From positions 1-26,163 of IMG/VR virus record IMGVR_UViG_3300023293_000082: DNA of 26,163 nucleotides. One strand, written 5' to 3'. The notes under the pieces were generated by a model. It worked only from the letters and a program-made list of their open reading frames with translations. It was not told where the DNA came from and made no database searches. Shown here one piece after another: positions 1 through 18,287 of this stretch. A program made the translations under genes and the position numbers. Positions within the stretch are counted from its first letter, which is position 1. Each line of letters begins with the position of its first letter. This stretch comes from a virus. Taxonomy: Duplodnaviria > Caudoviricetes.

Positions 1-97
1 TATACGCGCTTTGCCTTTCTTTGGTTGCGTAAATGTTATTTACTTGCTTTTCAAGCTTGCAAATAACACCGTTGATGTTGTCTATTTCTTCTAACAT
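1..97 (-). CDS. Hypothetical protein, 5' part only (MLEEIDNINGVICKLEKQVNNIYATKERQSAY...)
   Basis: ATG at 97-95 overlaps the TAA of the upstream gene (TAATG coupling); open to the window edge. Confidence 0.7.
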   Translation of the reverse strand, partial: MLEEIDNINGVICKLEKQVNNIYATKERQSAY

Positions 98-564
98 TAC
101 CCTTTTATAATTAAAACATCCTTAGTATGAGTAACAACTGGCATCGGAACTTCTTCGCCTGTTTCTTCGTCAAAGAGTCGCGCACCTTTTTGCCATGATT
201 CAAATGCACTCTTATACAATGATTCTTTATTTTTAACCTTAGCAGTTAAATCACTCCATTCTTGAATGCCTTTATAGTTATACATCGCACGCCCTGATCT
301 TCTTTCAATCTTAACACCTTTATGCTCAAATGTTTTTAAAGGATATTTCTCTGACTCCTCCATTGCTAATTCATAAACAATTTCTTTAGCATCCTTGCAA
401 GCCTTTTCAATATTGCTTAACGATCTCAAAGCTACAATAGCATCTTTAGTGCCGTCCGTTACTGCGTTAGCTAATAGCTGTATAATATTAACAGCGTTGT
501 CTATTGGGTTGTCAATGTTTGACTGCTCCCAAACTTTCTGATCTTCAAATAATTCTTTACTCAT
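97..564 (-). CDS. Hypothetical phage protein in the recombination operon
   Basis: 155-aa ORF tightly coupled to both neighbours. Confidence 0.8.
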   Translation of the reverse strand: MSKELFEDQKVWEQSNIDNPIDNAVNIIQLLANAVTDGTKDAIVALRSLSNIEKACKDAKEIVYELAMEESEKYPLKTFEHKGVKIERRSGRAMYNYKGIQEWSDLTAKVKNKESLYKSAFESWQKGARLFDEETGEEVPMPVVTHTKDVLIIKG

Positions 565-568
565 AATA

Positions 569-1186
569 TTATAGGTTTGATTGATTGACTAATTTATCGC
601 TTAACTCTTGAGTGAATGTAAATTTCTTTTTGAAGTCATCCGTTGTAAAGCCCTCCTTTAGAGCCTTGACACAACGCATCCAGTCCGCAGAACCTTCTAT
701 CAATGGTATCAATGCTTTTGCCTTTGGAGGCGTTGGCATGTCGTTAGAATGCTTTGTGTCCGTGTCGTCTATCTTACCTACTGGAGTAAGGAATGTATAG
801 AGCAAACAGTTTTTAAGCGCGTAGGTTGTGGCCTTACCAGCGCCTTTGTCTTGGTTATCTATTCCATGACCGTAACCGCTTAACTCTTGGCTTTCGCCTG
901 ATTCATGCAAGAGTAGATATTTAGTTGTAACCTTTGTAAAAATAGATTGTTTCATCTTTTTTCCGTAATTTGTTTCTTCTTCCCATCGGTCAAGATGCGT
1001 TTCCTCCTTTATGTCAATCGGTAAAATGCATAGGCCATTCTTTTGAAGTGCTATGTTAAATACCTCTTTTACGTCTTGATCTTTTGTTCCGTCATAAGAA
1101 TATTTTCCGTCTCCTACTTTGGAGTTCTTTTCCATTCCTTTGACCTCGGCCATAACGGCTAAGATTGCTTTTGCTAAGTTCTTCAT
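569..1186 (-). CDS. ERF-family single-strand annealing protein
   Basis: ERF-like motifs (LAKAILAVMAEVKGMEK, LLHESGE, DKGAGKATTYALKNCL, DDTD); start moved to ATG 1186 to remove the overlap with the upstream ORF. Confidence 0.85.
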   Translation of the reverse strand: MKNLAKAILAVMAEVKGMEKNSKVGDGKYSYDGTKDQDVKEVFNIALQKNGLCILPIDIKEETHLDRWEEETNYGKKMKQSIFTKVTTKYLLLHESGESQELSGYGHGIDNQDKGAGKATTYALKNCLLYTFLTPVGKIDDTDTKHSNDMPTPPKAKALIPLIEGSADWMRCVKALKEGFTTDDFKKKFTFTQELSDKLVNQSNL

Positions 1187-1196
1187 TCGTGTTTGT

Positions 1197-1454
1197 TTAA
1201 ATTGAATACTCTTTAATATCGGTAACTTCGTCAAGATAGAAGCCTTCTTCATGCTCGATGAAGGTAGCCGTTCCAGTCACCCAGTCGTCACTGCCTTGAA
1301 TGCGCCCTAACATTTGTATGGTGTAGTCTTGGCAGTCCTGGCCGAACGTGTCGCGGTCGCCTTGTTCGCTGATCCAGTCAACATCGTGCCACGAATCTAA
1401 GTTGTCGATGACGCTACTGTTTTCGGAATAGAATCGTTTGTCTTTATTGTTCAT
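1197..1454 (-). CDS. Small acidic hypothetical protein
   Basis: 85-aa ORF directly downstream of an ECF-type promoter motif. Confidence 0.7.
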   Translation of the reverse strand: MNNKDKRFYSENSSVIDNLDSWHDVDWISEQGDRDTFGQDCQDYTIQMLGRIQGSDDWVTGTATFIEHEEGFYLDEVTDIKEYSI

Positions 1455-1461
1455 AGCTATC

Positions 1462-1486
1462 TTTACGAGAATGAGTTGAAAAGGTT
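1462..1486 (-). promoter_or_regulatory. ECF-sigma-type promoter motif AACCTT...CGTAAA (copy 1)
   Basis: Minus strand AAC-N16-CGTAAA ending 7 nt before ATG 1454; motif recurs in four intergenic regions. Confidence 0.6.
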
Positions 1487-1492
1487 TAAAAA

Positions 1493-1548
1493 AAATAACA
1501 GTACCTAAACGGCACTAGCGCGCCCGTTTAGCTTACGTTAGTAACAAT
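1493..1548 (+). repeat. attC-like site E1
   Basis: TAACA 1496, stem CTAAACGG/CCGTTTAG followed by an unpaired base, CGTT-AGTAAC-AAT 1536-1548. Confidence 0.75.
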
Positions 1549-1574
1549 TATTTTTTTGCCACCAAGCAGTACGG

Positions 1575-2222
1575 TCAAACAGTACGCTCTACTGCTATAT
1601 TAAAATAGGCTTCATCTTGTTCAATACCTATAAAATTTCTTCCTAAATTTTTACAAGCAACACCAGTTGTTCCTGTTCCCATATAAGGGTCAAGTATTGT
1701 GTCGCCTTTATTGGTATATGTTTTAATCAACCATTCCATTAATTCAATAGGCTTTTCTGCTGGATGTCCTGTTCTACTTCCGTTCCTGTTGTTTATAGCA
1801 TCAAAATCCAAAACAGAACCAACATTTTTAGAAGGGTATTTAGTTCTTTGTTCTTTGTTTAGCCTTTGCATTTCTTTTTCAGTTCTTTTTATTTTTTGAG
1901 CATTATAGGGTAGTTTGCCAAATACTAATATTGTTTCGTGTTGCCTTCCTACCATAGTTTTAAAAGAGTTACTTCTATAAGTGTTTTTACGCCATACAAT
2001 GTCATATTTGTAATTTTTTTTATTGCCTAAAACTAATTCAGATGTTAATGGCTGCACACAAAACAAAACAAACCCTTTAGCATTAAAGTTAAATACTTCA
2101 TTTGGTTTTACACCTTTATCCCATTTAGCATAGTTAGTGTTATATGGCAAATCGCTAATTACAAAATCGTAATGCTCTTTAATATCTACCTCGTTACAAT
2201 TTCCTTTATATAATTTTATCAT
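1575..2222 (-). CDS. DNA N6-adenine/N4-cytosine methyltransferase, beta class (cassette 1)
   Basis: Motif IV DLPY, HPAEKP, motif I DPYMGTGTTG. Confidence 0.92.
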   Translation of the reverse strand: MIKLYKGNCNEVDIKEHYDFVISDLPYNTNYAKWDKGVKPNEVFNFNAKGFVLFCVQPLTSELVLGNKKNYKYDIVWRKNTYRSNSFKTMVGRQHETILVFGKLPYNAQKIKRTEKEMQRLNKEQRTKYPSKNVGSVLDFDAINNRNGSRTGHPAEKPIELMEWLIKTYTNKGDTILDPYMGTGTTGVACKNLGRNFIGIEQDEAYFNIAVERTV

Positions 2223-2281
2223 CTTTATCTATATTTTAATTCGTACCTCATTAATTTGCCAACGCTCTAAAAAATAACAGT

Positions 2282-2346
2282 AACTAACACAGTATATAAT
2301 TAATGGCAAAAAAGCCACTAACCATATACAACACGTTATGCGTAAT
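2282..2346 (+). repeat. attC-like site E2
   Basis: TAACA 2285, arms GTATATAATTAATGGC/GCCACTAACCATATAC (mismatches become G:T on the minus strand), CGTT-ATGCGT-AAT. Confidence 0.8.
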
Positions 2347-2413
2347 GCCTTGCTGACCATTTCCAATTGAAGTTCCGTGAAGGAAAAACAAAAAGAAAAA
2401 AGCCACCGCACTT

Positions 2414-3058
2414 TTAAAACATTGTAATTTGTTGTTTAAATTCATTGTATAGTTTTTTTCCTGTTTCAAAATATTTGCTATCAATTTCGCAAATATCCAA
2501 ATCAAAACCTTCTTTATCGCAAGCAATTGCAATAGTCATACTTCCACCGTGTGTATCAAGTATTTTCATTCCCTTTTCTGCAAATGTATTTAAGCACCAT
2601 CTATACAAATCTATTGGTTTTTGTGTTGGGTGCGTTCTTATTGTTGGCATTCCCACGCCTTTTATATTTCCTTTAAACCCGTATCTATTACCATCCCACA
2701 TATACTTGAAAATCTTTGCGTTTTTATCAAATGAAGTCCAAGCCATTTCACAATCTGCATAAGTATCTGAATGGTTCAATTTGTCCCAATTTATAAAACA
2801 CCTACTATTTTTTAAATGCTCTATAAAATAATTTCCTCCCCAAATAATTTGATTTTTACTAATTCTAAAAAGCTGTTCAAAGTATTCAGGTTCTGGTATT
2901 TTAGAATCCCAATCATTATCTGAATTATTGTTTAATCTTTTATTTTTAGTTACTCCAATCCCATAAGGCGGATCAACTATTGCAAGGTCATAGTGGTTAT
3001 CGGGTTTAGTTTTCATAAACTCGATGTTGTCTATATTGTAAAAGTTTATTTCGCTCAT
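2414..3058 (-). CDS. DNA N6-adenine/N4-cytosine methyltransferase, beta class (cassette 2)
   Basis: Motif IV DPPY, IIWGGNYF, HPTQKP, motif I DTHGGSMT. Confidence 0.93.
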   Translation of the reverse strand: MSEINFYNIDNIEFMKTKPDNHYDLAIVDPPYGIGVTKNKRLNNNSDNDWDSKIPEPEYFEQLFRISKNQIIWGGNYFIEHLKNSRCFINWDKLNHSDTYADCEMAWTSFDKNAKIFKYMWDGNRYGFKGNIKGVGMPTIRTHPTQKPIDLYRWCLNTFAEKGMKILDTHGGSMTIAIACDKEGFDLDICEIDSKYFETGKKLYNEFKQQITMF

Positions 3059-3105
3059 ATAATTAAATTAAAAAATCCCTCCCTAAAAAATTAAAAAATA
3101 CAGAT

Positions 3106-3165
3106 GCCTAACACCAAATATAAGCCATAGAAAAAACGGCTCATATTATTTCCGTTGTAGGTAAT
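3106..3165 (+). repeat. attC-like site E3
   Basis: TAACA 3109, arms AATATAAGCC/GGCTCATATT, CGTT-GTAGGT-AAT. Confidence 0.8.
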
Positions 3166-3172
3166 AAGCCTA

Positions 3173-3283
3173 CTACCTTTTCTTGTGTATTTCCCAATAC
3201 CAATAATGAGCAATCAGTAAAAGTGATGCTACTATAAAGATGGTTACTATTGCCGTAACTACTAATATTTCTTGATTTTCCAT
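3173..3283 (-). CDS. 36-aa single-pass membrane peptide MENQEILVVTAIVTIFIVASLLLIAHYWYWEIHKKR (cassette 3)
   Basis: Translated by hand; fills the unit between E3 and E4; hydrophobic helix plus basic tail; A-rich leader. Confidence 0.7.
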   Translation of the reverse strand: MENQEILVVTAIVTIFIVASLLLIAHYWYWEIHKKR

Positions 3284-3322
3284 AATTTATGTTTTACTGT
3301 TTCAAATCCGTAGGCTTAAAAC

Positions 3323-3380
3323 CTACAACAAAGGCTAAAAAGCCATACAAGTACAGGATCTTAGCCTAGTCATTACCCTT
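3323..3380 (+). repeat. attC-like site E4 (terminal; ends in CATTACCCTT instead of CGTT)
   Basis: CAACA 3326, arms AGGCTAA/TTAGCCT, same length class as E1-E3. Confidence 0.65.
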
Positions 3381-3410
3381 ACTATTACGCACCTAATAAA
3401 AAAAGGTTGT

Positions 3411-3436
3411 AACCTTTTCGATATTAATCTCGTAAA
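3411..3436 (+). promoter_or_regulatory. ECF-sigma-type promoter motif (copy 2), overlapping the palindrome AAAAGGTT-GT-AACCTTTT at 3401-3418
   Basis: AAC-N17-CGTAAA upstream of ATG 3460. Confidence 0.55.
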
Positions 3437-3446
3437 CATCCGCAAC

Positions 3447-3454
3447 CAAATATA
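3447..3454 (-). promoter_or_regulatory. Bacteroidota -7 promoter box facing the left cassette array
   Basis: TATATTTG on the minus strand; -33 box not evident. Confidence 0.45.
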
Positions 3455-3459
3455 AAACA

Positions 3460-3603
3460 ATGAGACCAAGACACGAATCGAAGCACTTTCAAAAGCTGAA
3501 ACCAAACAGCAAACATAAACGTAAAGGCAATCTGTTAACGCGCATACTGCGAACTAAGTTAATAAAATGGATTGATAAAACATTTGCCTTTGTATTTAGA
3601 TAA
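3460..3603 (+). CDS. 47-aa basic peptide MRPRHESKHFQKLKPNSKHKRKGNLLTRILRTKLIKWIDKTFAFVFR
   Basis: Translated by hand; AAAACA leader; promoter motif upstream. Confidence 0.55.
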   Translation: MRPRHESKHFQKLKPNSKHKRKGNLLTRILRTKLIKWIDKTFAFVFR

Positions 3604-3617
3604 CCGATGGAAAAGGT

Positions 3618-3625
3618 TATATTTG
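3618..3625 (+). promoter_or_regulatory. Bacteroidota -7 promoter box for the replication operon
   Basis: TATATTTG immediately before the structured leader. Confidence 0.6.
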
Positions 3626-3628
3626 TAT

Positions 3629-3721
3629 TCGCTGCCTCTCACGGTATAGAGCGATAAAGAAACGTGTAGGCGTACAATGATGACAGGTGAGAGGGTCGGA
3701 TTTGTACGCCTATTTTATTTT
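3629..3721 (+). promoter_or_regulatory. Structured 5' leader: two hairpins with complementary loops, then a U-rich tract
   Basis: TCGCT/AGCGA stem enclosing CCTCTCAC; 11-bp TAGGCGTACAA/TTGTACGCCTA stem enclosing GTGAGAGG. Confidence 0.7.
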
Positions 3722-3731
3722 AATAAATGCC

Positions 3732-4457
3732 ATGAATAGTTACGAACTCTCAAGATCATGGTTTGACTTCTGCTTTGAAAATCCAGAAAAGATCAAGCCA
3801 AATCATACGGCTTTATATTTCTTTGCCATTGAGCATTGCAACCGTTTAGGATGGAAAAAGAAATTTGGTTTTCCTACTACTATGGCAATGGAGGCAATAG
3901 GAATAAAGTCATATAACACTTACATAAATACCCTTAACGACTTAGTTCGATGGGGTGGATTTGAAATGATTGAACGGTCAAAGAATCAATACTCAGCAAA
4001 CATTATTGCCCTATCAAATATTAACAAAGCACTTGATAAAGCACTTGATAAAGCATTGATAAAGCACGGTACAAAGCAAAGTGAAAGCACTAGTGAAAGC
4101 AATGATAGTATAGATAAACAAATAACAATAAACAATAAACCAATTAACAATAAACAAGAGGTAGTTTTGCCTTTTGATTCAAATGAATTTTTTAGTCAAT
4201 GGAACATTTGGAAGGAATACAAAAAGGCAGATCATAAATTTAATTACAAAAGCAACGTAAGCGAACAAGCTGCCTTGGCTAAACTTTCCGAACTTTCAAA
4301 CGCAACCGAATTAACTGCTATTAAAATTATTCACGAATCAATTTCAAACGGATGGAAAGGGTTCTTCACTCAAAAAGATAACAATGGAAAAGGAAACCAA
4401 GGCGATCGAGCGCGCGCACTCGCGGAAGCCAACGGCATTGACTACGATAGCTTATAA
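3732..4457 (+). CDS. Phage replication initiator (lambda O-like architecture)
   Basis: HTH-like N-terminus (LYFFAIEHCNRLGW, AMEAIGIKSYNTYINTLNDL), low-complexity iteron linker, C-terminal WKEYKK...SISNGWKGFF; start taken at ATG 3732. Confidence 0.85.
   Translation: MNSYELSRSWFDFCFENPEKIKPNHTALYFFAIEHCNRLGWKKKFGFPTTMAMEAIGIKSYNTYINTLNDLVRWGGFEMIERSKNQYSANIIALSNINKALDKALDKALIKHGTKQSESTSESNDSIDKQITINNKPINNKQEVVLPFDSNEFFSQWNIWKEYKKADHKFNYKSNVSEQAALAKLSELSNATELTAIKIIHESISNGWKGFFTQKDNNGKGNQGDRARALAEANGIDYDSL
4026..4157 (+). repeat. Probable replication origin: iterons plus A-rich tract inside the initiator gene
   Basis: AAAGCACTTGAT x2, AAAGCATTGAT, AAAGCA core seven times at 11-12 bp period, then AACAAT repeats. 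Confidence 0.75.
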
Positions 4458-4977
4458 CCTCGAAGCGAAGCCAATGCTAATGCAGATAAGGGAGGGGAAC
4501 GAAAAGACAGTTCAAACGCAAGTAATAAGCGCAATAGTCAAAGCGTCCGAAGCTATGCAGATAAATCTAAGCGATAGCGCAATTAAAATCATTACCGAAG
4601 ATTTGATTGACATGTATCAATACGAATCTATTCAAGATATTATCGAATGCCTTAAGCAAGGCCGAAGAGGTGTGTACGGTGTTAACTCTTACGGTAAGCT
4701 TAACTTGGAACTGATTTCAAAATGGATGCAAATATATTTAGATGGGAAGTATCTAGCCAAAGAGAATCACGAAAAGATAAAACAGAGCCTAATCGAAAAA
4801 GATAATGATTTTGATGCGGAAGAGTTTTACCGAAAAGGCAAAGAATATATTGAGGCTCAAAAGGAACTGAATAAAAAAGGCAACCAATTTTCAAACGCAA
4901 CGTATAATGAAATTAAGCACCAATACTTAAAAGAAAAGAAAGATAAAAAAAATATTGACAATAATATTCCTAGCTAG
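4384..4977 (+). CDS. Replication accessory protein (position of a P-like helicase loader)
   Basis: 197-aa ORF overlapping the initiator 3' end; function from synteny only. Confidence 0.55.
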   Translation: MEKETKAIERAHSRKPTALTTIAYNLEAKPMLMQIREGNEKTVQTQVISAIVKASEAMQINLSDSAIKIITEDLIDMYQYESIQDIIECLKQGRRGVYGVNSYGKLNLELISKWMQIYLDGKYLAKENHEKIKQSLIEKDNDFDAEEFYRKGKEYIEAQKELNKKGNQFSNATYNEIKHQYLKEKKDKKNIDNNIPS

Positions 4978-5089
4978 TTTTATGCTCACCTCGTGCGCTT
5001 CTTCAAGAAGCTGCGGGGACATTTACAAGGCTGGAAAGAAAGACCCGCCAAAGATGGAGAGGAAAGCGATTAGAATGTCTAAAGGGTAA
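4943..5089 (+). CDS. Small lipoprotein (I/M)KKILTIIFLASFMLTS-CASSRSCGDIYK..., non-ATG or mutated start
   Basis: Basic N-terminus, hydrophobic core, lipobox LTSC; first codon ATA, in-frame TAA at 4928. Confidence 0.55.
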   Translation: MKKILTIIFLASFMLTSCASSRSCGDIYKAGKKDPPKMERKAIRMSKG

Positions 5090-5135
5090 TGCTAAATGTA
5101 AAAAGCGTTTTAATGATTTTTAAATAATGTTATGG
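5082..5135 (-). repeat. attC-like site E5 (terminal, degenerate; begins AAGGGTAATG on +)
   Basis: Arms TGTAAAAAGCGTT/AATGATTTTTAAA, TGTTA at 5128; shares CGTTTTAATG apex with E6. Confidence 0.6.
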
Positions 5136-5290
5136 CAAGTTCTGAAATAATACAATCAAAAGGAGAAGTACAAATGACCAAAAGAAAATGGGGGCAACTA
5201 TACAAAAAAGGTTGGCAAAGACACCAAGACTTTTGGAATAGAAGGTGGTGGATTAGATTTAAGTGGGATGCTGAATCTAATTTGCCATAA
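5132..5290 (+). CDS. 52-aa Trp/Lys/Arg-rich peptide (cassette 4)
   Basis: MASSEIIQSKGEVQMTKRKWGQLYKKGWQRHQDFWNRRWWIRFKWDAESNLP; ATG lies in GTTATG and TAA in CATAAC of the flanking sites. Confidence 0.65.
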   Translation: MASSEIIQSKGEVQMTKRKWGQLYKKGWQRHQDFWNRRWWIRFKWDAESNLP

Positions 5291-5337
5291 CGGTTTGTGT
5301 ATGGCATCGTTTTAATGTGCTATACACGTTGTTATAC
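5280..5337 (-). repeat. attC-like site E6
   Basis: On +: ATT-TGCCAT-AACG, arms GTGTATGGCA/TGCTATACAC (G:T on +), TGTTA. Confidence 0.8.
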
Positions 5338-5356
5338 ACTTTTAAATTTAAATAAA

Positions 5357-5554
5357 ATGAACTTTAAAGAAGGACAAAAAGTAAATTACGAAAATAAAGA
5401 AACTCATATCGAAACACTTAACAATAATGGTTCTTGTATTATAGCTAACCCCTTTTGGAATTGGGACGAAGAAGGTTTATGTGTAGATGAAGGTATTGAT
5501 TACGATGTACCTTATTGGATTAACGTTAAGATAACAGAGCTTAATTGTGTATAA
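5357..5554 (+). CDS. 65-aa acidic hypothetical protein (cassette 5)
   Basis: ATG 5357 after AAATAAA; stop codon inside the TAAC of E7. Confidence 0.75.
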   Translation: MNFKEGQKVNYENKETHIETLNNNGSCIIANPFWNWDEEGLCVDEGIDYDVPYWINVKITELNCV

Positions 5555-5602
5555 CACTAAGCTAGAATACGTTTCTTCAATGTATTTTAGCGGCTGTTAT
5601 CG
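5544..5602 (-). repeat. attC-like site E7
   Basis: On +: ATT-GTGTAT-AAC, arms GCTAGAATACGTT/AATGTATTTTAGC (two G:T on +), TGTTA. Confidence 0.8.
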
Positions 5603-5637
5603 AGTCATTTTAATGCTCGAAATTTAAACGAAACAAA

Positions 5638-5796
5638 ATGTGCAAAGCTTACGTAAACAATAAATGCGACTGTAAAAACGGAACATGCTTTCTTTACGAA
5701 TCGATTCAAGAGCCAACACCGAAGCGAATTGAACTAGATCAGCGTCCAAGTAATCGGTTCCCAAAATTATTTATTAACCAAAACAAAACAACATGA
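5638..5796 (+). CDS. 52-aa peptide with four N-terminal Cys (MCKAYVNNKCDCKNGTCFLYE...)
   Basis: Translated by hand; A-rich leader; ATGA overlap with the next gene. Confidence 0.6.
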   Translation: MCKAYVNNKCDCKNGTCFLYESIQEPTPKRIELDQRPSNRFPKLFINQNKTT

Positions 5797-6020
5797 CACT
5801 CAAACAAATAGCACTGCAAGCATTCAACGACATGCCTGACGACTTTTTTTCATCTATGCTAGTTGGACAAGCAAAGAAGATCGACATGAATAGACGCTAC
5901 TCATTCGCGGACACATTCATGAGGAAGGTTAGGCAGCTTAGGCAGGACGGGGTGATCAATTACAGAGTGACTGATTACAAAGAAGGACTTTATCAAAAAC
6001 TAAACGTAACGATATTATGA
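5793..6020 (+). CDS. Hypothetical protein, possibly winged-helix
   Basis: 75 aa; TFMRKVRQLRQDGVINY resembles a recognition helix and wing. Confidence 0.65.
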   Translation: MTLKQIALQAFNDMPDDFFSSMLVGQAKKIDMNRRYSFADTFMRKVRQLRQDGVINYRVTDYKEGLYQKLNVTIL

Positions 6021-6439
6021 ATTTAAAAGAAGCGATAGCCGAAATTGAAAAGCGGTATAAGAGGGGGGATGTGATTTCGTGCCTAACCAATCGCGAAAGT
6101 CAAACTATGTATACGAATTTTCGAGACATAGAGGCTTTAGATACATCTGATGATATAGTGTGGATGAAAAATGGCAATGGGCTTGGCATAATCATTTACA
6201 ATAAAAAATGGGCAGAACCAATCCGAGAAAAGAAAAGCCTTTGGGGCTTCTTCGAGTCGGTGAAAGATCAGTACCCGTATCTAGCGCACGATTATTTAAA
6301 GGAGTGCAGTGATGTTCCCTATATGAATACGGACACGGGGGGGATGTTAGTGTGTTTTCATTGGAATAGTTCACCTCAAGGGTATGAGTATTGGGACAAC
6401 ATTAACAGATTATATCTAGCCTACTTTAAAGAAGATTGA
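6017..6439 (+). CDS. Hypothetical phage protein
   Basis: 140 aa; ATGA coupling; C-terminal FHWNSSPQGYEYW motif. Confidence 0.75.
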   Translation: MNLKEAIAEIEKRYKRGDVISCLTNRESQTMYTNFRDIEALDTSDDIVWMKNGNGLGIIIYNKKWAEPIREKKSLWGFFESVKDQYPYLAHDYLKECSDVPYMNTDTGGMLVCFHWNSSPQGYEYWDNINRLYLAYFKED

Positions 6440-6440
6440 A

Positions 6441-6448
6441 TATATTTG
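6441..6448 (+). promoter_or_regulatory. Bacteroidota -7 promoter box
   Basis: TATATTTG directly before the structured element. Confidence 0.6.
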
Positions 6449-6450
6449 TG

Positions 6451-6596
6451 TAACCGTACCCGATTGGCTTCCCGTCATATTGGCTAACGGGTCATAAAAC
6501 TACTCTCCGCCACGCAACCCCATTTATCAGCGTCACGGAGTTGTAACGAAGCCACCCAAAGCAAAGCGGAAAGACGCTATCTAGGGTGGTTTTTTT
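6451..6596 (+). ncRNA. Candidate structured small RNA ending in an intrinsic terminator
   Basis: GC-rich, no convincing ORF, three consecutive stems (ACCCG/CGGGT, CTCCG/CGGAG, GCCACCC/GGGTGGT + T-run). Confidence 0.55.
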
Positions 6597-6690
6597 ACCG
6601 CATGTATAATAATACTACCACTCGTGTAAATCAACACAACCAATGTCAGGTGTTTGCGTATATTTAAATATACAAAACGATAAAACTATG
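6597..6690 (+). repeat. 94-bp promoter/leader repeat, copy A
   Basis: Ungapped match (about 69/94 by hand) to the reverse complement of 18194-18287. Confidence 0.85.
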
Positions 6691-6906
6691 ACAACTTCAG
6701 AGATTAACAACGAAAGAAACGAAAAAGGTGTATACTCAGACGGCAATGATGTTGCTGGCTGGTTTGCAATCTCAAGGGATAACATAAACTTAATTACATA
6801 CTATGAGGATAAATATACCTTTTCTCAGAAAGAAGATGTAATCAGGAGATATACAGATAGAGGGTTTGCAATAAGGATAACTCAGCTTCAAAACAGAGGG
6901 TACTAA
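6688..6906 (+). CDS. 72-aa hypothetical protein (moron)
   Basis: ATG at the end of the repeated leader; own terminator. Confidence 0.75.
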   Translation: MTTSEINNERNEKGVYSDGNDVAGWFAISRDNINLITYYEDKYTFSQKEDVIRRYTDRGFAIRITQLQNRGY

Positions 6907-6965
6907 AATGATAAATCCACACCAATTTACAACTAATTGATAAAGAAATTACTTTTTGATCACAT

Positions 6966-6997
6966 GAAGCCCCCCTTTAAATAGGGTGGTTTTTTTT
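6966..6997 (+). terminator. Intrinsic terminator
   Basis: AAGCCCCCCT/AGGGTGGTT stem plus T-run. Confidence 0.7.
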
Positions 6998-7023
6998 ATG
7001 GCTATTCTTTTGTAAATTTGATT

Positions 7024-17959: not shown

Positions 17960-18196
17960 TCATGAAGGGTAGTTCATGTTTATTTTTTCCGCTTTGCAGT
18001 GTCTTGTAAAACACTCTATATGACCACCCATTTGATCTGTGGTTATAATACCTTCTTTTAGTGTTCTCATTAACTTTACTGAGAACCTCCATAAGTTATC
18101 TTGAGTGACCTCTGTGATAGCTAAGATTACCTCTCTATTGCTTGTAAATGCTGCGCTGTTTCCCATTTCTGTGTATCCCGTTTCTGTGTTTGTCAT
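17960..18196 (-). CDS. 78-aa hypothetical protein (moron)
   Basis: ATG 18196 at the end of leader repeat copy B. Confidence 0.75.
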   Translation of the reverse strand: MTNTETGYTEMGNSAAFTSNREVILAITEVTQDNLWRFSVKLMRTLKEGIITTDQMGGHIECFTRHCKAEKINMNYPS

Positions 18197-18287
18197 GTTC
18201 TTATCGTTTTGTATATTCAAATATACGCAAGGCATCGAAACTTGTTAGTCTAGTTTATACGAGTGGCATCATTATTATACAGACGGT
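18194..18287 (-). repeat. 94-bp promoter/leader repeat, copy B (TATATTTG at 18218-18225)
   Basis: Homologous to 6597-6690. Confidence 0.85.

Follow-up and report, generated by a model that had tools for sequence, protein, structure and literature searches.

Seven attC-like hairpin sites bound five mobile gene cassettes in a tailed phage and are probably served by a borrowed Xer-like recombinase

The DNA stretch analyzed here (26,163 nucleotides, IMG/VR record IMGVR_UViG_3300023293_000082; hereafter the window) is a tailed-phage contig, encoding an ERF single-strand annealing protein, an O-like replication initiator, terminase, portal and head protease. On the two sides of the replication module it carries seven short hairpin sites, designated s1 to s7, and five gene units, A to E, lying between them. 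The seven sites bound five mobile cassettes, which are gained and lost at the G|TT core of the sites. One gene is present in each unit, including two N6/N4 DNA methylases (PF01555) and three small open reading frames (ORFs) of 36, 52 and 65 amino acids (aa), confirming an earlier reading of the sequence alone (hereafter the original prediction) that exactly one gene, either a methylase or a small ORF, lies between successive sites.

All seven sites were found where the original prediction had placed them, and comparison with shuffled sequences indicated that they are not due to chance. The core-to-core lengths, predicted to be 43-52 bases, are 43 for s1, 52 for s2, 47 for s3, 48 for s4 (by sequence reading), 44 for s5, 45 for s6 and 46 for s7. 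The top strand, defined as in attC, reads YAACA-arms-C-GTT-N6-AAT and is the + strand for the left sites and the - strand for the right sites, indicating that the two arrays are mirror images. The predicted common pattern was thus retained, except that the degenerate members are not the terminal sites but the inner pair, s4 and s5, which carry ATT-ACCCTT where the others carry GTT-N6-AAT. Start and stop codons had also been predicted inside the core boxes of the right array. The ORF of D both starts and stops within core boxes, and E and ORF 4955-5089 have their stop codons there, but the ATG of E (5357) is outside the core box. In the window the unit finder detected 5 units connected by 3 chain links, as compared with a mean of 1.5 units (maximum 6) and no link in 300 dinucleotide shuffles. 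A search of Rfam with positions 1-7000 gave no match at the gathering level.

Using motif and unit-end scripts, we then compared the ends of the units. The strongest feature of the arrays, absent from the original prediction, is that the complementarity lies between the two ends of a unit and not between the two halves of a site: the nine terminal bases on one side of a unit are the reverse complement of the nine on the other. At the six variable positions per unit, 27 of 30 were complementary in the unit-wise comparison and 9 of 30 when the two halves of each site were compared; among 120 permutations of the ends, the true pairing scored highest (binomial P about 1e-12). Complementary ends of this kind are left when a circle is opened within its own site. 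When the circle-form sites were joined in script, long hairpins were predicted, the bottom strand being better in all five cases. For the outer ends of s1 and s7, no intact partner end was detected within the window. All five units are inverted relative to classical attC cassettes, in which the gene as a rule reads toward its own attC. The sites, the units and the neighboring features are listed below.

Table. Hairpin sites, gene units and neighboring features in the window (lengths in base pairs, bp; crossovers given as the two flanking positions).
Feature	Position	Strand	Description
Site s1	1496..1548	+	Outer resident site of left array; crossover 1537|1538; arms kept in relatives without the whole array
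Site s2	2285..2346	+	Crossover 2335|2336; homology of methylase-B relatives L186-L189 stops at 2330-2335
Site s3	3109..3165	+	Crossover 3154|3155; in L486, s3 arms joined to TTACCCTT
Site s4	3326..3380	+	Inner site; ATT core in place of GTT, then ACCCTT (the original target's right half)
Site s5	5082..5132	-	Inner site; ATT core in place of GTT, then ACCCTT; crossover 5090|5089; joint 5086 to 5552 in one run
Site s6	5280..5334	-	Crossover 5291|5290; relatives diverge at 5291-5292
Site s7	5544..5599	-	Outer resident site of right array; crossover 5555|5554; arms retained in L001-L003 and L083
Possible decayed, gene-less mini-cassette that may have brought s7	5596..5625	-	Top strand similar to an empty but intact unit of L501, the first one next to the phage recombinase
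Unit C	1538..2335 (798 bp)	-	DNA methylase 1575-2222 (PF01555, E 5e-38); s2 hairpin upstream of gene; ends match 5/6; absent from L001-L003
Unit B	2336..3154 (819 bp)	-	DNA methylase 2414-3058 (PF01555, E 1e-10); includes s3 hairpin; ends match 4/6
Unit A	3155..3372 (218 bp)	-	36-aa hydrophobic ORF 3173-3283; includes s4 hairpin; ends match 6/6; exactly missing from L486
Unit D	5090..5290 (201 bp)	+	52-aa ORF 5132-5290; ends match 6/6
Unit E	5291..5554 (264 bp)	+	65-aa ORF 5357-5554; ends match 6/6
Central replication module	3381..5089	+	Divergent intergenic region, O-like initiator 3732-4457 (phrog_678, E 1.4e-8), 197-aa ORF 4384-4977, short ORF 4955-5089
ERF single-strand annealing protein	569..1252	-	PF04404, E 1.5e-10; outside the arrays

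Related phages were collected using the initiator, terminase, methylase B, the 197-aa ORF and ORF E as queries. In L001-L003 (98.5% backbone) the segment 1539-3374, corresponding to A, B and C, is absent, as it is in L082 and L487, likely the same strain; the s1 arms are joined there to G-TC-ACCCTT, and a different methylase unit follows D. Only A is missing in L486, which reads s3 arms, G and TTACCCTT, a clean G|TTACCCTT join, and has after D another sequence, not that of L001-L003. In L083, exactly E is missing. An unrelated phage (L584 and L585) carries unit E at 97.8% identity with both ends exact and no shared backbone, and in L586 the ends of unit E are lost. Variation in a natural population was examined using contigs of eight salt-lake runs, which may belong to a single campaign, the possible source runs being excluded. 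Unit E (264 bases) was skipped in four of the eight runs, D plus E in one of four, and A plus B plus C in two of the four compared over the left array. The breaks are located at G|TT: L486 retains the G of s3, and the others fall within 0-4 bases, the resolution being limited by shared bases. The proposal that the phage gains and shuffles genes as cassettes was borne out by these presence/absence breaks, which fell at the GTT cores in the alignment of related phages (L001-L003, L486, L083 and L584/L585).

Based on the joins in the relatives, the hairpin upstream of a gene belongs to that gene, and the crossover takes place at the top-strand G|TT. The homology of unit B with L191, for instance, continues through the s3 arms to 3156. 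The layout of classical cassettes, with the hairpin downstream of its own gene, was ruled out by L083, L486, L191 and L584. The original prediction must be corrected in this respect: the hairpin travels with the gene after it, so that the genes are inverted relative to classical attC. After omission of 9 near-duplicates among 39, a total of 30 methylase-B loci were examined, of which 11 showed complementary unit ends. The upstream hairpins of the methylase-B genes in L161, L193, L194 and L196 are alike, while the downstream hairpins differ. The ends of unit C (1538-1557 and 2218-2335) also enclose other cargo: in L177 they flank a methylase-B relative, and the joints 1557 to 2218 and 1557 to 2254 in salt-lake contigs likewise represent other cargo between unit C ends. 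This reuse gives a hint of how new cassettes arise.

The inner targets, 5082-5090 and 3372-3380, both read TTACCCTT and form inverted copies flanking the replication module. A third copy, ATTACCCTT, is present at 96-104, where L001-L003 change over to a different recombination module (the alignment ends at 100). The repetition of these sequences may reflect a preferred target, or chance. The core boxes at 3372, 5090 and 5616-5625 (s4, s5 and the possible mini-cassette) show decay of G to A on one strand, and the same change is found at 5331 in the unit E variant of L584/L585 and several runs. Such decay could lock cassettes in place, or could result from cytosine deamination.

The distribution of the site family was examined with a motif based on the loop of s5 and s6, which by estimate matches 1400 stretches in viral sequences and 2300 in GTDB, many of the GTDB matches being due to chance. 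Among the genome matches with a unit-like flank, 31 of 39 are titled Bacteroidota. Unit-like sites were also found in records titled Rhodoferax, Marinimicrobia, Cloacimonadota, Gammaproteobacteria and Nanoarchaeota (L347, L355, L367, L389, L425 and L441), which may indicate a wider range, or misbinned contigs. By blastn against cultured phages, the right array gave short chance-level matches only and the left array matched in the methylase genes only. Using the unit scripts, the cultured Polaribacter phage P12002L (L495; 29.2-32.5 and 36.3-39.8 kilobases, kb) was found to contain 9 rows of chained units (8 distinct ends) and one unlinked unit, all inverted relative to the annotated genes. For viral chained units as a whole the ratio was 109 inverted to 5 classical, while for bacterial units it was 38 classical to 18 inverted, overlapping loci being counted twice.

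The arms of 102 distinct sites, picked by flank and not by pairing, matched at an average of 7.94 of 9 positions, as compared with 5.72 after swapping of arms (maximum 6.06 in 1000), and the bottom strand was predicted to be more stable in 71 of the 102. Covariation, on which the original prediction had staked the fold, was observed in a set of 46 sites (5 from the window and 41 hand-picked from the 102), the score being 0.360 against 0.175; none of 500 shuffles reached this score, which was also above all slid controls. Two of five measures failed to beat the shuffles, and kinship can inflate the result. The compensatory changes in these sequences support the predicted hairpin fold. Of 177 chained sites, 166 have the longer spacer at the 5' side of the bottom strand. 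Extrahelical bases are a feature of attC, defined as T and G about 6 nucleotides apart on the folded bottom strand (PMC3053210); a single bulged G on the 3' arm was predicted in 3 of the 177 sites, and a T in 31.

The enzyme was searched for both in this phage and beside related arrays. Contig G002 matches both ends of the window with 99.96-100% identity and gives a closed map of about 32.2 kb, in which no tyrosine recombinase was detected by PF00589, nor by tblastn with the two candidate enzymes described below (E 0.01). Nor was any recombinase found in 9 of the 10 ORFs of the added 6 kb; for other recombinase families the search extended to Pfam and PHROG scans of 19 and 27 window ORFs. The absence of a recombinase from the window, noted in the original prediction, agrees with the closed-map search. 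Two complete phages with arrays, G081 and the cultured P12002L, are also without a tyrosine recombinase. In five array-bearing Bacteroidota genomes, the IntI profile TIGR02249 stayed below its cut-off in all five. The best match in three of them is a protein of about 380 aa, encoded 40-125 bp upstream of co-directional arrays. The array behind this enzyme contains at least 70 units over 100 kb in G006 and 15 units in G008; in G007, short arrays follow three of four copies of the gene; and in G010 the nearest unit is 4 kb away. In the Aquimarina chromosome G006 (C1:126.9-227 kb; L466-L470) the array extends past the region examined. The four copies in the Maribacter genome G007 (L471-L474) are 98-100% identical, three being followed by different arrays, which suggests that the platform itself is mobile.

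A second candidate, of 270 aa, is found in larger phages; it is 44% identical to the 380-aa enzyme and is without its N-terminal domain. Among the best 80 of its 203 relatives, a chained array was located upstream in 40 of the 52 loci having 2 kb of upstream sequence, and downstream in none of 74; the genes of these arrays were inverted in 137 cases, against 5. Beside both enzymes, a TATA-rich, attI-like half-site precedes the first GTT, while in the window s1 and s7 are full hairpin sites and no attI-like half-site was recognized by eye. The candidates score 188-213 against the IntI cut-off of 265, and the IntI insertion of roughly 42 aa is missing in both. In alignment with IntI4, the 380-aa enzyme matches on both sides of residues 177-243, carrying 25 residues in place of 67. 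Both are nearest to XerA by sequence and fold (4A8E, 5HXY), and NF040815 was above its cut-off in 3 of 5. At least 6536 homologues of the 380-aa enzyme exist; a search of viral contigs, sensitive to close relatives only, gave no close relative of it.

The structure of the 380-aa enzyme was modeled from 30 sequences (predicted local distance difference test score, pLDDT, 80), while single-sequence prediction gave no usable fold (pLDDT 37). The model has an extra N-terminal domain of about 75-100 aa. This domain (L472:8211-9353, residues 10-84) is weakly similar to the N-terminal domains of UvsW and XPB (Z 6.4, root-mean-square deviation 2.0, 63 residues), and an atlas search with it returned only unnamed clusters, under 0.9. 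As a lead only, the modeled similarity might mean that the domain binds branched DNA.

Taking these results together, the five units are mobile cassettes, and we consider it probable that they are cut and inserted, as predicted folded single strands, by a Xer-like tyrosine recombinase of Bacteroidota that the phage borrows. A cassette would be excised as a circle, in which its two ends (GTT-N6 with N5-YAAC) pair beneath the hairpin. The bottom strand would then fold and be recombined with the G|TT of a resident site. The Xer-like enzyme would be supplied in trans, by the host or by a co-infecting phage. As no attI is recognizable in the phage, the old sites s1 and s7 and targets of the GTTACCCTT type may be used instead; both empty targets read GTTACCCTT.

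The original prediction allowed a recombinase from the host or from elsewhere in the phage genome. The latter is unlikely because no tyrosine recombinase was detected in the closed 32-kb map, while supply from outside is likely. The likely enzyme is not IntI, named in the original prediction for integrons, but a Xer-like recombinase lacking the IntI insertion, and a co-occurring tyrosine recombinase, not detected in this phage, was found beside arrays of the same family in Bacteroidota chromosomes and larger phages. As the donor, we lean slightly toward the 380-aa enzyme of the host, and hold the 270-aa enzyme of a co-infecting large phage for a real but lesser possibility; the host enzyme is more likely because it would be available whenever a carrier host is infected.

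The inverted genes of the cassettes may be read from divergent central promoters. Both arrays read outward from the central region, in which TAnnTTTG motifs, presumably the Bacteroidota -7 element, are located at 3618 (+), 3517 (-) and 3454 (-), pointing both ways; a scan for sigma-70 promoters gave matches below chance. We also considered that, given mirror arrays, the bottom strand serves as the lagging template to either side of a presumed origin. This idea was contradicted by P12002L, in which the units flanking the replication gene all run in one direction, that of the phage genes, indicating that polarity follows transcription and not the fork, on the assumption that the origin is near the replication gene. 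Orphan phage methylases counter restriction, and the methylase cassettes probably protect this phage from host restriction.

The hairpins could instead be RNA elements (terminators, processing or translation signals) carried together with the genes, ERF swapping the genes by annealing at common hairpin sequences. An ERF gene is present in the window, hairpin families are reused between units (in L584/L585 a different gene follows the s5 arms), terminator-like scores were obtained for two of the seven sites, and some joints swap cargo within common unit ends (1557 to 2218 and 2254). This explanation, however, does not account for complementary ends 200-800 bp apart; only 4-5 bases are common at the breaks and the neighboring arms differ, the terminator matches are near chance (5 against 2.7 +/- 1.6), and sites of the same kind stand at the head of arrays that are linked to a recombinase and whose genes may point either way. 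We judge it very improbable. That classical integron attC sites are served here by an ordinary host IntI, as in a cluster of attC sites lacking an integron integrase (CALIN), also appears very improbable: the cores and the G|TT crossover are as in integrons, and one such site in P12002L was called attC by HattCI in the available text of PMC9892861, but the same text gives no verified IntI1 product with that site, TIGR02249 remained under its cut-off in 5/5 array-bearing Bacteroidota genomes, the bulged G is absent, and the arrays adjoin another enzyme.

A closer relation to Xer systems would make the cassettes real but the hairpin incidental, recombination taking place at ordinary double-stranded Xer-type sites. 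The affinity of the candidate enzymes to XerA, their lack of the IntI insertion that contacts bulged bases and the rarity of the bulged G (3/177) all agree with this possibility. Between partners, however, the arms differ and yet pairing is kept through changes on both sides, the spacer asymmetry is one-sided in 166/177 sites, and the complementarity of the unit ends is meaningful only through pairing of the two boxes. We therefore regard double-stranded recombination as improbable.

Several observations weigh against recombination of folded single strands by a borrowed Xer-like enzyme. In their present form the sites are predicted to fold weakly (-1 to -10 kcal/mol), and stem pairs outside columns 18-22 are often broken (alignment A2). 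The core is ATT at both inner sites, s4 and s5, which the model must call a later mutation, and the L001 join, G-TC-ACCCTT, is one base off the model. Complete unit ends were lacking in 19 of the 30 methylase-B relatives, which showed none or partial ends. No excised circle, detectable as an end-to-start joint, was found among the matches listed for the eight runs, a weak test, since rare forms are lost from contigs. One joint running backward, from 3146 to 1535, is consistent with another array in which unit C is preceded by an s3-like hairpin. With respect to the enzymes, the host-type copies L473 and L475 have no adjacent array and L481 has none within 4 kb, the host-type gene was found in only 4 of 71 sampled genomes (E 1e-75, query genome included), and either enzyme is connected with the sites by its neighborhood.

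Other features of the window were also noted. Iteron-like repeats are located at 4026-4106, within the O-like initiator gene, and the 52-aa ORF of unit D gave no Pfam or PHROG match. A 98-bp stretch at 6597-6694 recurs in inverted orientation (78%) at about 18150-18250, with L081 and L083 also involved, and precedes two related small ORFs, 6643-6906 and 17960-18235. In L001 the segment 6691-6954 is swapped for another gene, away from the cassette sites.

The mosaic joints of phage genomes are usually ascribed to recombination that is either illegitimate or driven by homology; in this case a natural population reveals, base by base, a site-specific route taken by single accessory genes. The value of the window lies in the combination of a closed genome without the enzyme and natural variants fixing the crossover, and the cultured P12002L, with the same sites, offers model material. 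The view that the IntI insertion is required for cassette recombination is challenged. The short, sequence-flexible sites and a small recombinase could serve as a cloning tool.

Parts of this system are already in print, namely the rAID-1 arrays, with no mechanism in the available account, and one phage site, while the cassette system is little described. Full-text literature, searched by title and opening abstract and with most subscription papers outside its reach, gave no account of inverted phage cassettes or of the mechanism of this enzyme. According to the available text of Ross et al. (bioRxiv 10.1101/471110), rAID-1 consists of a XerD-like gene 5' of two or more co-directional genes with integron-like intergenic repeats, was found in 226 of 423 Bacteroidales genomes, and belongs to gut Bacteroidales chromosomes with immunity cargo; no crossover, cassette boundary, recombination test or phage form appears in that text. 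Its criteria include a recombinase sharing over 44% identity with BF9343_RS08045 and a published intergenic motif. The flavobacterial arrays in G006, G007 and G008 have the rAID-1 layout as there described, with a G+C content of about 0.31, and the units of the window (0.30-0.33, against 0.41 in the right part of the window) lie within the rAID-1 cargo limit of 41% or lower; in contrast, the window phage is without the 5' XerD-like recombinase. As compared by description, the window arrays are most likely the phage side of a rAID-1-like system, for whose arrays our model offers the mechanism that the available account does not give.

In the available text of Qi et al. 2023 (PMC9892861), 17 phage CALINs are described, and IntI1 recombined five of six phage sites, P12002L_attC1 being the one without a verified product. 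The CGTTTTAATG loop of this site is identical to that of s5 and s6, and methylase genes surround it. The same text reports two P12002L sites, takes them as ordinary attC, and mentions no other enzyme and no natural gain or loss.

Both candidate enzymes match archaeal XerA best in sequence and fold. XerA acts on double-stranded dif sites to resolve chromosome dimers, and the host enzyme differs from it in having an extra N-terminal domain of about 75-100 aa. Integrons and CALINs share with the phage arrays the YAAC...GTTR cores (R'', RYYYAAC-like, and R', GTTRRRY-like, complementary across each cassette), ends pairing in the circular form, the G|TT crossover, sequence-variable hairpins, one gene per unit and methylase cargo, and the phage layout, seven sites and no intI, fits a CALIN. 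The phage differs from integrons in that its genes are inverted relative to the site, no bulged G is present, the sites are as short as 43 bp and neither intI nor a recognizable attI was found in the genome; the associated enzymes are without the IntI insertion of roughly 42 aa. Tentatively, and at slightly less than an even chance, we propose a second integron-like system in Bacteroidota and their phages, in which Xer-like enzymes without the IntI domain would recombine folded single strands, and small recombinase-less phages would hijack the defense-gene capture enzyme of the host to trade inverted counter-defense cassettes across unrelated phages, fast enough for many array versions in one lake population. 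The system works like an integron cassette array, but is not classed as an integron because the tests for IntI, bulged bases and gene polarity were all negative.

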